From positions 1-36,391 of IMG/VR virus record IMGVR_UViG_2534681704_000005: a DNA stretch of 36,391 nucleotides; one strand, written 5' to 3'. The notes under the pieces were generated by a model. The model did no database searches. It worked only from the letters and a program-made list of their open reading frames with translations, and had not been told where the DNA came from. The stretch comes from a virus (Duplodnaviria; Heunggongvirae; Uroviricota; Caudoviricetes). Made by a program: the position numbers and the translations under genes. Positions 3,155 to 35,674 of this stretch are shown piece after piece (position 1 is the first letter of the stretch; the number at the start of each line of letters is the position of its first letter).

Positions 3155-3516
3155 TATGCTCCAGCCTCCGGTGCTTTTGGCATTACTGCCCAGTGAGTGA
3201 TATTGACGTTTTCAAGGTCCCCGACCTGAAATGTCCACTGCCATTCTCCGGTTTCTTTTTGTCCCCAGGTGTACCAGAGAGAACGCCAGCCAATTAGCCA
3301 GCCTTCTCCGTTAGCATCGAATAACAAAACACTTTCATTTGCTGGTGGCAGTTCAGTGGACACTGGTATTACTTTGTTTTCCTGTGCTGCACATTTAGCT
3401 TCAAGCGCATCGAATTTACGCACCAGGTATTCAGCATCTGTTTCATTTACTTTCAGATCTCGCGGTACACATCTCCCACGAAGAAACCCTTCCATTTCGA
3501 AAACATTCATGCGCAT
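3154..3516 (-). CDS. DUF551-like phage protein, 120 aa (YfdS-like)
   Basis: C-terminal NITHWAVMPKAPE resembles the DUF551 ITHWMPLP motif; start overlaps stop of upstream gene. Confidence 0.7.
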   Translation of the reverse strand: MRMNVFEMEGFLRGRCVPRDLKVNETDAEYLVRKFDALEAKCAAQENKVIPVSTELPPANESVLLFDANGEGWLIGWRSLWYTWGQKETGEWQWTFQVGDLENVNITHWAVMPKAPEAGA

Positions 3517-26496: not shown

Positions 26497-26852
26497 TGGC
26501 CCGTATCGGGGGAACCTGTTATTTCAAAATTGACGGTCAACAGCTATCGCTGACCGGCGGCATTGAGGTGCCCATGAACAGGACGGTCAATGATGACATC
26601 ATCGGCCTGGACGGTTCAGTGGACCGCAAGGAAACTCACCGTGCGCCTTATGTCAAAGGGACTTTCAAGGTGCCGAAGAATTTTCCGGTGAACAAAATCA
26701 CCTCGTCTGATGAGATGACTATCACTGCCGAGCTGGCGAACGGTCAGGTCTATGTATTGTCGTCCGCCTGGCTGCACGGAGAAGCGAACCATAATGCCGA
26801 AGAAGGCACGGTTGATCTTGAGTTCCACGGTGAAGAAGGGGATTACCAGTAA
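26496..26852 (+). CDS. Tail tube protein
   Basis: 118-aa ORF immediately after the sheath. Confidence 0.8.
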   Translation: MARIGGTCYFKIDGQQLSLTGGIEVPMNRTVNDDIIGLDGSVDRKETHRAPYVKGTFKVPKNFPVNKITSSDEMTITAELANGQVYVLSSAWLHGEANHNAEEGTVDLEFHGEEGDYQ

Positions 26853-27270
26853 TGAAAGAGCTTGAGTTAAAGAAACCGATTATCGCTCATGGTGAGACAC
26901 TCTCCGTACTGGAGTTTGATGAGCCCACCGGGAAGGATGTCCGCGAGCTGGGGTATCCCTACCAGATGAATCAGGATGAGTCCGTCAGACTTCTGGCGCA
27001 TGTGGTGTCGAAATACATTGTGCGGCTGGCGAAAGTGCCGCAAAGCTCTGTCGACCAGATGTCTCCGGCAGACCTGAATGCAGCGGCGTGGCTTGTGGCT
27101 GGTTTTTTCCTCCAGGCCTGACGGCTGAATACCTCACTGATCGCTTCTTTGACTGCGCCAGCTACTGGCGCATTAATCCCTTCGAATTGCTGAATATGCC
27201 GATCAGTGAAATTCCCTTGCTGGTCAGTCAGGCAAACAGGATAGAGCAGGAGAAACGCACACATGGCTGA
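26852..27270 (+). CDS. Tail assembly chaperone pair with programmed -1 frameshift (short product ends 27121; fusion product ends 27270)
   Basis: Slippery heptamer T-TTT-TTC at 27103-27109 near the end of the first ORF; the -1 frame continues FFPPGLTAEYLTDR... to 27270; located between tube and tape measure. Confidence 0.65.
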
Positions 27271-29095
27271 ATTTGAGCTTAAGGCGTTGATCACCGGTGT
27301 CGACAGGCTTTCTCCCGCGCTGTCGAAAATGCAAAAGAAAATCCGGGGATTTAAACGCCAGGCGGAAGAAGCGTCACAGGGTGGGCTGGCGCTTGGTGGC
27401 GGACTGGCAGCGGGTCTGACGCTTTCCCTGAAATCTTATGCTGATCAGGAAAACGCCGCCACCGGGCTGAAAGTCGCCATGATGGATGCGAACGGCGAGG
27501 TCGGAAAGAGCTTTCAGGACATCAATAAACTGGCTATTGGCCTGGGTAACCAGCTACCCGGTACAACGGCTGATTTCCAGAACATGATGCAGATGCTGGT
27601 GCGTCAGGGGATCCCGGCAGAAAATATTCTTGGCGGTGTGGGTAAAGCGACAGCTTATCTTGCGGTACAACTGAAAAAAACACCGGAAGCGGCTGCTGAG
27701 TTTGCTGCAAAGATGCAGGATGCTACCGGAACGGCGTCAGAAGACATGATGGGGCTGTTCGACACTATCCAGAAGGCGTTTTATCTGGGTGTTGACGATA
27801 CCAACATGTTGTCCTTCTTCACTAAAACCAGCTCTGTTCTGAAGATGGTGAACAAGGACGGTCTTCAGGCTGCACAGAGCCTTGCCCCCATCAGCGTCAT
27901 GATGGATCAGATGGGGATGAACGGGGAGTCGGCAGGTAACGCCCTGCGAAAAGTTATCCAGTCCGGATTAAGCGTTAAGAAAATCAGGGACGTCAATAAA
28001 ATCATGGCCCGCCAGAAACTCGGGGTACAGCTCGATTTTACTGACGGCAAAGGAAGTTTTGGCGGTCTTGATAACATGTTCAGGCAACTGGCAAAGCTGC
28101 GAAAACTGACCGACGTTAAGCGAACAGGTGTACTTAAGGCAATATTTGGTGATGATGCCGAAACTCTTCAGGTGGTCAATGCACTAATCGATAAAGGAAA
28201 GGATGGCTACGATCAGATCCAGCAGAAGATGAATAAACAGGCCAGCCTGAATAAACGTGTTCAGGCACAGCTTGGTACGCTGTCCAACCTGTGGGAGGCA
28301 ATGACAGGGACCGCAACTAACGGCCTTGCGGCTATTGGCGGCGCATTTTCTGGTGACGCTAAAAATATCACACAATGGCTGGGGGAGTTGGGGGAGAAAT
28401 TCACGAAGTTTGCGGATGAAAATCCCCGGGTTATTCGCGGCGTCGTCGGGCTTGCTGCCGGTCTTGCGATTCTGAAACTGGGATTGATGGGCGTTGGCGG
28501 TGCCATCAGTATTGTCAGCAGGATTATGTCGATGACGCCGATTGGCATGATTGCGACGGCGATTGCTCTGGCTGCGGGATTAATTATCACTAACTGGGAT
28601 GTTGTCGGACCTTATTTCAAGAAGCTCTGGGAAACCATTGGTCCTTATTTTGAGGCAGGTTGGGAACTTCTGAAGAAGGTTTTTGCCTGGTCGCCGCTGG
28701 GGATGGTGATCAATAACTGGGGACCGGTTGTTAAGTGGTTTCAGGATATGTGGGACAAGCTGAAGCCAATTATTGAGTGGTTTACCGACAGTTCCGGTGA
28801 CACGGTCGATGCCATTAACTCTGCGCAGTGGGGCGCGGGTGCTTATGATGCTTATGGGACGGGAATACCGGCGCGGGGATACACACCTTATCCGGCGGTG
28901 GATCCGGCTCAGTCAAACAACGCCTCCGATGCCACAGGCTCGAATCCCTTCATGATTAACAAAGCTTCTGTGCCAAAAGTTGATGGTGAGATCAAGGTCT
29001 CTTTTGTGAATTCGCCTCCGGGTATGCGGGTTATGGAAACGCGATCCAGCGGTTTTGATGTCAGCCATGATGTTGGCTATACGCGGTTCAGGTAG
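27263..29095 (+). CDS. Tail tape measure protein
   Basis: 610-aa ORF with Ala/Gly-rich helical and hydrophobic segments; canonical position. Confidence 0.85.
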   Translation: MAEFELKALITGVDRLSPALSKMQKKIRGFKRQAEEASQGGLALGGGLAAGLTLSLKSYADQENAATGLKVAMMDANGEVGKSFQDINKLAIGLGNQLPGTTADFQNMMQMLVRQGIPAENILGGVGKATAYLAVQLKKTPEAAAEFAAKMQDATGTASEDMMGLFDTIQKAFYLGVDDTNMLSFFTKTSSVLKMVNKDGLQAAQSLAPISVMMDQMGMNGESAGNALRKVIQSGLSVKKIRDVNKIMARQKLGVQLDFTDGKGSFGGLDNMFRQLAKLRKLTDVKRTGVLKAIFGDDAETLQVVNALIDKGKDGYDQIQQKMNKQASLNKRVQAQLGTLSNLWEAMTGTATNGLAAIGGAFSGDAKNITQWLGELGEKFTKFADENPRVIRGVVGLAAGLAILKLGLMGVGGAISIVSRIMSMTPIGMIATAIALAAGLIITNWDVVGPYFKKLWETIGPYFEAGWELLKKVFAWSPLGMVINNWGPVVKWFQDMWDKLKPIIEWFTDSSGDTVDAINSAQWGAGAYDAYGTGIPARGYTPYPAVDPAQSNNASDATGSNPFMINKASVPKVDGEIKVSFVNSPPGMRVMETRSSGFDVSHDVGYTRFR

Positions 29096-29194
29096 TGTAC
29101 AAAATGATTAATGTGTTTTTGTCTGGCATAATTTGGGTTTTCAGCTTTAAGTAGTTAATATAATCATTCCTTACAAATGATTGAAGGGATGATT

Positions 29195-29689
29195 ATGCGT
29201 ATCTTTGTTTTTTTTATATCTGCACTTTTATCTTTTAACTTGGCTGCGGAAGAGTGTAAGTTCAGCTTTAATGAGTCAGAATTAATCTCTTCTATAGGTA
29301 TTGCACCAGTTAAGCAAGAGATAATAAAGGATGAAGGAATAACTAAGCGGCAATATGAATTCAGAAGAGAATTATCTTCTGAAGAAATGCTTAGTGATGA
29401 CGCTGATGAAAAATATGAGCCGCAGTTTTATATATCTGTTTATAATCCATCATGCCCACAAAAGGTTATTGTTTGGTTTTTCAAAGACAATAAAAACACA
29501 ATGGATTTAAGTAATGAGGTCCTTGCTGGTAGAGCGTTCAAGTATTTAACTGGTGTTAATGAAAGTATTTTTGAAAATAAAATGAAAAAGTTTTTAAAGG
29601 TACAGTCATTTGAATCTTTTGATGAAAGGACAGATTCTAAATTTATAAAGAGTGGTAATATTTATTCCATTGATGTTCAACTCAGATAG
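29195..29689 (+). CDS. Accessory (moron) secreted protein with Sec signal peptide, 164 aa
   Basis: Start MRIFVFFISALLSFNLAA|EE with SD GAAGGGA; strongly AT-rich; inserted between tape measure and baseplate genes and followed by a terminator-like hairpin. Confidence 0.7.
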   Translation: MRIFVFFISALLSFNLAAEECKFSFNESELISSIGIAPVKQEIIKDEGITKRQYEFRRELSSEEMLSDDADEKYEPQFYISVYNPSCPQKVIVWFFKDNKNTMDLSNEVLAGRAFKYLTGVNESIFENKMKKFLKVQSFESFDERTDSKFIKSGNIYSIDVQLR

Positions 29690-29708
29690 TAATTAAAAAT
29701 ATTAGGTT

Positions 29709-29764
29709 CCCGCCACATCTTCTGCGATGTAAATAACTGACAAAGCAGATTTGGCGGGTTTTTT
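29709..29764 (+). terminator. Terminator-like structure (CCCGCCA...TGGCGGG plus T6) after the moron
   Basis: 7-bp GC arms enclosing an inner ACATC/GATGT stem, followed by TTTTTT. Confidence 0.45.
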
Positions 29765-29779
29765 GTATCCGGAGTTTAT

Positions 29780-31108
29780 ATGACGTGGAAAGACAGGCTT
29801 CAGGATGCGTCATTTCGCGGCGTACCGTTTAAGGTTGAAGAAGAAAGTGCGGGAACCGGTCGCCGTGTGGAAACACACGAATATCCGAACCGCGACAAGC
29901 CCTATACCGAAGATCTGGGAAAAGTCACTTTCCGCCCGTCCATCACAGCTTATGTGGTGGGAGATGACTGCTTTGACCAGCGCGATCGCCTGATTGAAGC
30001 GCTGAATAAACCCGGTCCCGGCACGCTTGTCCACCCGACATATGGTGAGCTGAAAGTCTGTGTTGACGGGGAAGTTCGGGTCAGCACATCGAAAAGTGAA
30101 GGGCGTATTGTCCGCTTTGACCTGAAGTTTGTCGAAGCAGGAGAACTCTCTTACCCCACATCAGGTGCGGCGACGGCGCAGACGCTGATGTCATCCTGTT
30201 CTGCACTGGATGACTGCATCAGTGACAGCTTCAGCGGTTTCAGTATCGATGGTGTGGCGGATTTTGTGCAGAACGACGTTATCGGTAATGCCAGCATAAT
30301 GCTGGGGTATGTTTCTGATGCGATGAAAGTGGTGGATTCTGCCGTATCGGATGCCGCCAGGCTGTTGCAGGGGGATATCTCGGTACTTCTGCCGCCGCCA
30401 TCGTCAGGCAAAAATTTCGTTGAGCAGGTGCAGAAAATGTGGCGTACCGGGAAACGCCTTTATGGTAACGCCAGCGACCTGGTCACCATGATCAAAACGC
30501 TTTCCGGTGTCAGCCTCGGCAGCGATCTGCAACCGCGCGGCGTCTGGAAAACGGACAGTAAAACCACCGCCACGGCGACGCAGCAGCGTAACGTGGTTGC
30601 CAGCACCCTTCGTACGACCGCAATCAGCGAAGCGGCGTATGCCGTCACCCGATTGCCTGCGCCAACAACTTCCGCGGTGATGCAGAATTCCGCAGTGGGG
30701 CAGGCAACAACACCTGCGCAGAGCACTGGCTGGCCTTCCGTCACGCATCCGGCACTGAACAATGCACCGGCGGTGAAAAACACAGTTGACCTGCCGACGT
30801 GGGAAGAACTGACTGACATTCGCGACACACTGAATACGGCAATTGATAAGGAGTTGTCCCGTACAACCAGTGATGCGCTGTTTCTGGCGCTGCGCCGGGT
30901 GAAAGCAGATCTGAATGCGGATATCAACACGCGCCTTGAACAGTCTGCACGGATCATTCAGCGCACACCGGATGAGGTTTTACCCGCGCTGGTGCTGGCG
31001 GCGACCTGGTTTGATAACGCGGCGCGTGACGCGGACATTATCCGGCGTAATGCCATTACGCATCCCGGCTTTGTGCCGGTGATCCCTCTGAAGGTGCCAG
31101 TGCAATGA
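29780..31108 (+). CDS. DNA circulation protein (Mu gp43-like)
   Basis: N-terminus MTWKDRLQDASFRGVPFKVEEES matches the Mu DNA-circulation N-terminal signature as recalled. Confidence 0.8.
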   Translation: MTWKDRLQDASFRGVPFKVEEESAGTGRRVETHEYPNRDKPYTEDLGKVTFRPSITAYVVGDDCFDQRDRLIEALNKPGPGTLVHPTYGELKVCVDGEVRVSTSKSEGRIVRFDLKFVEAGELSYPTSGAATAQTLMSSCSALDDCISDSFSGFSIDGVADFVQNDVIGNASIMLGYVSDAMKVVDSAVSDAARLLQGDISVLLPPPSSGKNFVEQVQKMWRTGKRLYGNASDLVTMIKTLSGVSLGSDLQPRGVWKTDSKTTATATQQRNVVASTLRTTAISEAAYAVTRLPAPTTSAVMQNSAVGQATTPAQSTGWPSVTHPALNNAPAVKNTVDLPTWEELTDIRDTLNTAIDKELSRTTSDALFLALRRVKADLNADINTRLEQSARIIQRTPDEVLPALVLAATWFDNAARDADIIRRNAITHPGFVPVIPLKVPVQ

Positions 31109-34780: not shown

Positions 34781-35674
34781 ATGCATCGTATAGACACGAA
34801 AACCGCGCAGAAGGATAAGTTCGGCGCGGGTAAGAACGGTTTTACCCGTGGTAACCCCCAGACCGGCACACCTGCCACCGATCTGGATGATGACTACTTT
34901 GACATGTTGCAGGAGGAGCTTTGCAGCGTTGTGGAGGCATCCGGTGCCAGCCTGGAGAAGGGGCGGCACGACCAGCTGCTTACCGCGCTTCGTGCGCTGC
35001 TGTTAAGCCGCAAGAATCCGTTTGGTGATATCAAATCGGATGGCACGGTGAAAACGGCTCTCGAAAACCTTGGTTTACCGGAATTACTGAACCTGAAGAG
35101 AGATAAGACAGATAACAGATTCTCGACTTTCGTGTTTGAGTCTGGCAGGCCAGAGGATAGTCTTTGGCTGGCATATGATGAACAGAAGAAACAATTTGCT
35201 ATCGCTTTTAAAGTCGACGGTGCCGCAAAATACGTATATCTGCAAAACAAAGGAGGAAGTCTTGCTCTTGAAGAACAGGTAACGGCGCAGGCAATACTGA
35301 CAAAACTGCTTCAGGTTGATGGTTCCGGGTCAGGGCTTGATGCCGATTTGGTGCGCGGGCTACCTGCTGATTTTGGTAGTTCACCGTCAACTAATGGATA
35401 TCAGAAGTTACCGTCCGGCATGATTATACAGTGGGGGATGTCAGAGGTTACATCAACGGATATCTACGTAAAATTCCCGGTGGCTTTCACAAGACCACCA
35501 CTGTTTGTCGGCGAGTCTTCGCCGGGCGGCGGACAAACGACATCAGTGTGGACAGCTAATGCTATAACGAATGTCGGATTTAATGCCACACAGATTTGCG
35601 TGTTAAGCAACACATCAGACAGAGTGCTCCTTCCCGATAATAACGCCACCACCTGGCTAGCGATAGGATTTTAA
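34781..35674 (+). CDS. Tail fibre protein (constant N-terminus plus variable C-terminus; contains invertase crossover site)
   Basis: Conserved tail-fibre N-terminus ([40 protein letters not shown]); gix-like site at codons about 93-101. Confidence 0.8.
35058..35083. other. gix/hix-like 26-bp site-specific inversion crossover site
   Basis: Minus strand reads TTCCGGTAAACC-AA-GGTTTTCGAGAG; left half is 11/12 to the Mu gixL half TTCCTGTAAACC as recalled from memory. Confidence 0.6.

Follow-up and report, generated by a model that had tools for sequence, protein, structure and literature searches.

In complete Escherichia coli genomes, the junction between the tail tape measure gene and the gene for a Mu gpN-like DNA-circulation protein is a polymorphic cargo site. 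It is empty in most prophages, and at least five small genes of unrelated sequence, the majority encoding envelope proteins, can take its place. One of these cargos, named X here, lies at 29195-29689 on the plus strand of the window, i.e. the whole 36,391-nucleotide stretch of viral DNA that was analyzed. Among temperate phages of Enterobacterales, X is an accessory gene that is specific to this slot in contractile-tail modules of the SfV/Mu type, and its product is predicted to be a Sec-exported, signal-peptidase-I-processed soluble periplasmic protein.

The window covers most of one temperate E. coli phage. A prophage located beside dusA in strain 19-5 was 100% identical to the window across the region 29096-29779, and Escherichia phage SKA5 was also a close match to the window. 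In the strain 19-5 prophage, the early genes are lambdoid, with a Q-type antiterminator, the head is of HK97 type and the contractile tail is of Mu/SfV type. The region 29096-29779 is precisely the gap from the tape measure stop codon (ending at 29095) to the gpN start codon (from 29780), with a single ORF inside (Table 1), and the baseplate hub gene comes next after gpN. Just 5′ of the tape measure gene, two overlapping ORFs at 26852-27121 (89 aa, tail assembly protein) and 27088-27270 (60 aa) showed the arrangement expected for a programmed-frameshift tail chaperone pair. In L001 (25686-27711, corresponding approximately to window position 34781 onwards), the tail-fibre genes were followed by an inverted second fibre-tip/assembly set and a serine recombinase, which resembles a Gin/Cin-type switch that changes host range by inversion.

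Table 1. Features of the tape measure/gpN junction in the window and alleles of this slot in complete E. coli genomes
Feature	Location	Strand	Details	Genomes
Tail tape measure gene, left slot flank	27263..29095	+	PF10145, E 1.3e-26; RefSeq annotation	
AT-rich spacer 5′ of X	29096..29194	+	99 nt	
Predicted signal peptide codons of X	29195..29248	+	MRIFVFFISALLSFNLAA; 18 residues, Sec/SPase I type; n/h/c architecture in 11 of 11 members	
Predicted mature X	29249..29689	+	146 aa; stop codon included in end coordinate	
Intrinsic-terminator-like element	29709..29764	+	CCCGCCA 29709-29715 / TGGCGGG 29752-29758; T6 29759-29764	
Ribosome-binding site of gpN	29771..29774	+	GGAG; conserved right slot boundary (CCGGAGTTTAT-ATG)	
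DNA-circulation (Mu gpN/gp43-like) tail protein gene, right slot flank	29780..31108	+	PF07157, E 3.7e-34	
X allele	this window			85
Empty allele	L002 1300-1359		60-bp junction; flanks ~97% identical	most of the other E. coli genomes with the flanks
bPH_1 (PH-domain) protein allele	L003 1352-1729		PF08000	28
OB-fold/tRNA_anti-like protein allele	L004 1329-1775	- (opposite strand)	N-terminal membrane anchor	72
Lipoprotein-like protein allele	L005 1387-2064		225 aa; phrog_1353; lipobox-like LLLGGC	55
176-aa protein allele	L006 1388-1918		N-terminal hydrophobic/TM segment; phrog_5485	178

In the list of ORFs, X was entered as 29177..29689 (170 aa). We adopted the 164-aa reading from the ATG at 29195, which is the start used by RefSeq (WP_023277704.1) and lies five bases 3′ of an AAGGGA Shine-Dalgarno sequence (29184-29189). 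This confirmed a preliminary description of the window, which had placed an AT-rich ORF of 164 aa here: the GC content was 31.1% in X, as opposed to 51.7% in the tape measure gene and 56.0% in gpN. The dN/dS ratio of X was 0.15-0.18 between E. coli alleles that are ~5% apart in protein sequence, and those of its neighbours were ~0.1 (tape measure gene) and 0.06-0.17 (gpN). X is thus a real gene under selection, and these values rule out positive selection as a gene-wide signal. The reading frame was intact in 41 of the 44 viral-contig copies, and one further copy was clipped by a contig end. The remaining two, IMG/VR copies L048 and L060, lacked one T (near position 3510) of the T8 run that occupies 29208-29215 within the signal-peptide codons, and the resulting frameshift truncates the protein at 35 aa. 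Because L048 and L060 share one project series, the T7 run is likely a homopolymer sequencing error; slipped-strand on/off switching of X could also account for it.

The Sec signal peptide that had been proposed for X was borne out by its family. The N-terminal 18-20 residues are poorly conserved in sequence across members, but the signal architecture is kept: all 11 aligned members have a basic M(R/H) n-region, a hydrophobic core of 10-12 residues with a Kyte-Doolittle mean of 2.5-3.7, and a cleavage motif of the form (small)-x-(A/S) before x-(E/Q)-C. In X itself the N terminus reads MRIFVFFISALLSFNLAA followed by EEC. The predicted mature protein is acidic (~17.1 kDa, pI ~5.0) and contains no further hydrophobic segment (maximum 19-residue hydropathy, 0.70). 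It has exactly two cysteines, C21 and C87, both of which are invariant. They fit a periplasmic disulfide, and X is probably disulfide-bonded. Because the first cysteine is the third residue (+3) of the predicted mature protein and not the first (+1), there is no lipobox and X is not expected to be a lipoprotein.

Structure prediction, which the preliminary description had suggested as a check, gave a confident model when AlphaFold2 was run with the family alignment (pLDDT 86.9, pTM 0.79). The model has a compact alpha+beta body made up of a helix and seven strands, and residues 1-20 have low pLDDT. Of the two locations that had been considered for the product, periplasmic or outer-membrane, the prediction of a soluble exported protein retained the former. 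An outer-membrane protein of the lom or bor type was rejected, as was any lipoprotein, since the model is a soluble helix-plus-sheet sandwich and X has no lipobox, no beta-barrel and no Pfam match.

The family of X is small. Profiles of phrog_8976, a PHROG without known function, matched X over its full length (residues 1-164 of 164, E 4.4e-107), and 11 full-length members were 54-67% identical to X. The family comprised 14 clusters among 5.8 billion proteins, an exhaustive profile search recovered 12 proteins among 1.84 billion representatives, and a scan of GTDB species genomes yielded two loci. Searches of Pfam (to E <= 1), NCBIfam, PADLOC and PDB sequences produced no match for X. Structural comparison of the model gave no informative match; Spackle, Llp, Ltp and the inhibitor families showed no fold match, and neither sequence nor fold homology was found to HK97 gp15/YebO, T4 Sp and Imm, P22 SieA, Llp, Cor or Ltp. 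X is a novel sequence, and its modelled fold has no recognisable relative among characterised proteins.

To place X among related prophages, a 2.7-kb query across the tape measure/gpN junction was run against 5,426 complete E. coli genomes. The query matched 1,099 of them, with X covered in 84 of the matches; by a search for X itself, 85 of the 5,426 genomes carried it. About 90% of the E. coli prophages with 95-98% identical tape measure/gpN flanks had no X; they carried the empty allele or one of four alternative cargos (Table 1). X is therefore dispensable for the tail and not a structural component of it, in agreement with the preliminary description. N-terminal membrane or lipoprotein signals were found in three of the four alternative cargos, or in four of five when X is counted. 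The OB-fold cargo matched phrog_8545, annotated as 'superinfection exclusion Sie-like' (E 1.5e-49), and none of the slot cargos matched a PADLOC defence model. The left boundary of the slot, as judged by alignment, is formed by the last 4-6 codons of the tape measure gene, which vary among the cargo alleles; the right boundary is formed by a conserved hairpin, a T-run and CCGGAGTTTAT-ATG. In strain EC21Z-014 (L007 1669-2474), an IS5 element with a frameshifted transposase splits the gene for the 176-aa cargo.

The slot resembles the cargo hotspots of prophages and satellites such as P2/P4 (Rousset et al. 2022, as cited in PMC11364771). Both the slot and these hotspots are fixed intergenic sites of a conserved phage backbone at which unrelated small cassettes interchange among near-identical genomes. 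The tape measure/gpN slot differs from them in lying inside the tail operon and in holding single small genes, mostly for envelope proteins, without a PADLOC match. In our literature searches, we found no description of this slot or of phrog_8976. The prophage of an Atlantibacter MAG (L015 7980-9778) has two extra genes between gpN and the baseplate hub gene, encoding proteins of 506 aa and 93 aa for which Pfam gave no matches; this junction is a second variable slot of the same tail module.

Outside the window, all 55 further X loci lay immediately between the tape measure and gpN genes, with both flanks readable in 53. These loci come from Escherichia and Kluyvera, from the prophage of an Atlantibacter MAG, and from Pantoea phage AH07, where X is 42% identical. 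The most distant slot members from the profile search, P0018 (39% identity) and P0024 (28%), occupied the same slot. The only placed homologue outside the slot was the chromosomal P0022 (profile E 3e-15), which has a non-phage context. P0022 (L068/L069 5001-5471) has no signal peptide, is missing the first invariant Cys, has a GC content of 37% versus 52-59%, and sits 60 nt 3′ of the terminator of a gene for a 1,079-aa pertactin-type autotransporter. P0022 could be a copy that has decayed or been repurposed.

Over 91 lineage pairs, the identity of X tracked that of the tape measure and gpN proteins (Spearman 0.88-0.89), and X diverged at ~2-fold the rate of these neighbours. Superimposed on this co-divergence, whole X alleles have been exchanged between near-identical tails. 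In the pair L011 and L018, the tail proteins are 90-98% identical (tape measure, 94%) and X is only ~60% identical; the divergent block takes in the final ~130 nt of the tape measure gene and reaches ~400 nt into gpN. Co-adaptation of X with the tape measure C-terminus and the gpN N-terminus was considered for this block and rejected: because the allele boundaries in E. coli are tight, the block is explained by recombination breakpoints. The GC content over all related loci was 31-42% in X versus 45-59% in the flanks. Because X is AT-rich in every background, this composition is a stable property of the gene rather than a mark of recent arrival. The earlier proposal that X was acquired independently of the tail genes is thus only partly sustained: X is compositionally foreign and optional, but it is restricted to the slot, with the one chromosomal exception, and correlates closely with the tail genes. 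On these comparisons, X behaves as an old, slot-faithful, losable and exchangeable cassette and not as a recent random insertion.

A terminator-like hairpin with a T6 run had been noted before gpN, and this element is present. It has a 7-bp G+C-rich stem and a 36-nt interior with a second short helix, and a 97-nt segment containing it folds at -24 kcal/mol (z = -2.8 relative to shuffles). With a loop of more than 8 nt, it escaped a simple terminator scan. In position, the element is homologous to the canonical ACCCGCTTCGGCGGGT-T7 hairpin found in the other alleles and at the empty site, and both the hairpin and the T-run recur in all plus-strand alleles, the empty allele and Pantoea phage AH07 (window 29709-29774; L002 1300-1359; L009 9472-9516), with stems that vary by compensatory changes (CCCGC/GCGGG versus CCCAC/GTGGG). 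Because the empty allele and the Pantoea phage have the hairpin, it is a backbone element and not the cargo's own terminator. A terminator is thus kept inside a Q-antiterminated late operon even when there is no cargo. It could serve as an mRNA 3′-end or stability element, in the control of stoichiometry, or as a stop for transcripts that are not antiterminated.

From the predicted cell location of X, the Sie-like neighbouring allele, the fast evolution and cassette exchange, and documented precedents, we tentatively infer that X is a periplasmic superinfection-exclusion factor acting at DNA injection; this is our leading reading, and it may well prove wrong. Transcription of X would take place at least with the late tail operon, antiterminated by the Q-like protein of the phage; weak transcription in the lysogen may add to this. 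Once exported, X would interfere with the envelope-crossing step of incoming phages by binding either one of their ejected tail proteins (a tape measure, gpN-type or spike protein) or a periplasmic factor of the host that these proteins need. Exclusion would then fall after adsorption and before DNA entry. Fast evolution and allele swaps are as expected for a gene involved in conflict. Counting against exclusion, the defence-model, protein-family and fold searches drew no match for X, and its gene-wide dN/dS points to purifying, not diversifying, selection. In addition, the Sie-like label of phrog_8545 comes from database annotation, and arguing from one allele to another by association is weak.

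Several characterised systems offer precedents. HK97 gp15 is encoded by a tail-operon moron next to the tape measure gene; it is an inner-membrane protein of the YebO family that is expressed by the prophage from its own promoter, and the exclusion depends on the tail of the incoming phage (PMC3594210, Cumby et al. 2012). Like gp15, X would be a small envelope-targeted protein encoded by an optional, compositionally distinct tail-operon gene adjoining the tape measure gene. Unlike gp15, X is predicted to be soluble with a cleavable signal peptide, is unrelated in sequence and fold, has no demonstrable promoter, and lies on the other side of the tape measure gene in a tail module that is contractile and not of the siphovirus type. 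T4 Spackle (Sp) is a small soluble periplasmic exclusion protein that acts on the incoming tail tip after adsorption; T4 is virulent, the Spackle gene is an early one, and the protein works by inhibiting the gp5 tail lysozyme (PMC7677548). X resembles Spackle in its small size and predicted soluble periplasmic location and, if it excludes phages, would likewise act after adsorption. No muralytic domain was detected in the tape measure, gpN or hub proteins of the present phage.

T5 Llp, Cor of phi80/N15, and Ltp are exported lipoproteins that block superinfection at the envelope, where Llp and Cor mask the outer-membrane receptor FhuA (PMC9586334, PMC3594210, PMC3952083). These proteins and X are alike in being exported phage proteins, by prediction in the case of X, that are encoded near tail or receptor-binding genes; X differs in having no lipobox and no similarity to them. 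X would be comparable to T4 Spackle in location and to HK97 gp15 and Ltp in logic. By such analogies, X looks like a gene in the manner of tail-operon morons and exclusion genes, yet it has no homology to any characterised exclusion family. A bolder form of the exclusion proposal, which we regard as doubtful, is that X is the founding member of a new family of anti-phage proteins that are soluble and periplasmic, have a previously unseen fold and capture a tail-tip protein (tape measure or gpN type) upon its ejection, and that the junction is an undescribed hotspot of single-gene, envelope-acting exclusion factors in about one-fifth of complete E. coli genomes. Contractile-tailed phages, and possibly others, would then be the ones stopped at injection.

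The timing of expression bears on these proposals. The spacer 5′ of X (29096..29194) contains a perfect TATAAT at 29159-29164 with a poor -35 element, and a TGnCATAAT at 29124-29132. A sigma-70 consensus scan upstream of X found no match, and the best score of a relaxed promoter scorer in this spacer was equalled by 15% of shuffles. Across all X lineages, a fraction of 0.15-0.9 of the shuffles scored as well, and the corresponding fraction was slightly better for three other slot cargos (0.05-0.10). The spacer between the tape measure stop codon and X was 64-133 nt in the Escherichia, Kluyvera and Atlantibacter group. In Pantoea-type and other distant lineages it was only 7-16 nt, holding only a ribosome-binding site, and X must therefore be part of the late operon there. 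What can be deduced for X is limited to late expression, together with the tail genes and under Q antitermination; because a Q-type antiterminator is present, late transcripts should extend into X and past it. The lack of a promoter signal for expression in the lysogen and the embedding of X in the late operon of distant lineages count against exclusion, and late expression is poorly suited to exclusion by a resident prophage.

These results also qualify the classification of X as a moron in the preliminary description. The absence of X from close relatives and its foreign composition agree with that classification, but no promoter of its own, which a moron in the strict sense would have, was detected above shuffles and the terminator belongs to the backbone. 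By the moron definition of Juhala/Hendrix, as summarised in PMC3594210, which also includes expression from the repressed prophage, three of the four features that can be assessed from sequence were found for X, namely presence/absence, composition and a terminator, the last being that of the backbone.

Late expression would suit a helper of the phage's own cycle that is exported before lysis and has a periplasmic or lysis role, such as conditioning the envelope or keeping progeny from wasting DNA on the receptors or debris of the lysing cell. The latter role has been proposed for T5 Llp. The short distance to the tape measure stop codon in distant lineages, the lack of a detectable independent promoter, the expected Q-dependent read-through, and a conserved slot in which X co-diverges with the tail module (rho 0.88) are all consistent with such a helper. 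However, X is dispensable, with most close prophages lacking it and some carrying an unrelated cargo instead. Moreover, a soluble periplasmic protein would be diluted at lysis, and the invertible alternative tail fibres argue against a single receptor-masking partner. We therefore consider a late helper unlikely.

Less likely again is the alternative raised in the preliminary description, that X is a lysogenic-conversion factor with a non-phage benefit for the host (stress tolerance, serum resistance, colonisation or adhesion), like lambda Bor and Lom. The Bor protein is a lipoprotein, and Lom belongs to the Ail/Lom family of 8-stranded outer-membrane beta-barrels. All three are optional tail-region genes of temperate coliphages with exported products, by prediction for X, and the AT-richness of X, the terminator 3′ of it and the many animal and human sources of its carriers fit such a role. 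Moron-encoded envelope proteins with roles of this kind are documented (PMC3594210). X differs, however, from Bor and Lom in having neither a lipobox nor an outer-membrane beta-barrel nor any similarity to either, and there was no promoter signal to support lysogenic expression. Furthermore, the family occurs in the phage slot only, apart from the one signal-less chromosomal exception, and never as a chromosomal virulence gene.

X might alternatively be a periplasmic immunity or inhibitor protein that counters a toxin or enzyme attacking the envelope; T6SS peptidoglycan or lipid effectors, colicins, tailocins and lysozymes are examples. Orphan immunity proteins are typically small, acidic, disulfide-bonded, periplasmic, AT-rich and fast-evolving. 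This profile matches that of X, whose disulfide and location are predicted and whose alleles are replaced. However, no toxin gene adjoins X, neither its fold nor its sequence matched the Ivy, PliC, MliC, Tsi, Tai or Tli families, and the exclusive linkage to a phage tail slot would go unexplained, which together make an immunity role improbable. Finally, a structural or assembly component of the tail, or a spurious ORF, is close to refuted: the constant position between two tail core proteins would suit a structural component, but X is missing from most prophages with near-identical flanks and its signal peptide would send it out of the cytoplasm, the site of tail assembly, and a spurious ORF is excluded by the purifying selection and the confident fold.

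If the exclusion reading of X is true, the slot would be a compact natural library of single-gene, envelope-acting phage-exclusion factors, with at least five unrelated cargos at one site across ~1,100 of 5,426 complete E. coli genomes. Such factors would be invisible to standard annotation, because current defence-finder models recognise none of the cargos. Few molecular mechanisms are known in this class (Spackle, Llp and gp15), and X would contribute one based on a soluble periplasmic protein of new fold, with a bearing on phage therapy and the prediction of E. coli host range. Should X turn out to be a late-phase helper or a host-fitness factor, it would be an ordinary accessory gene. Either way, the hotspot and its conserved terminator would be useful for prophage annotation.
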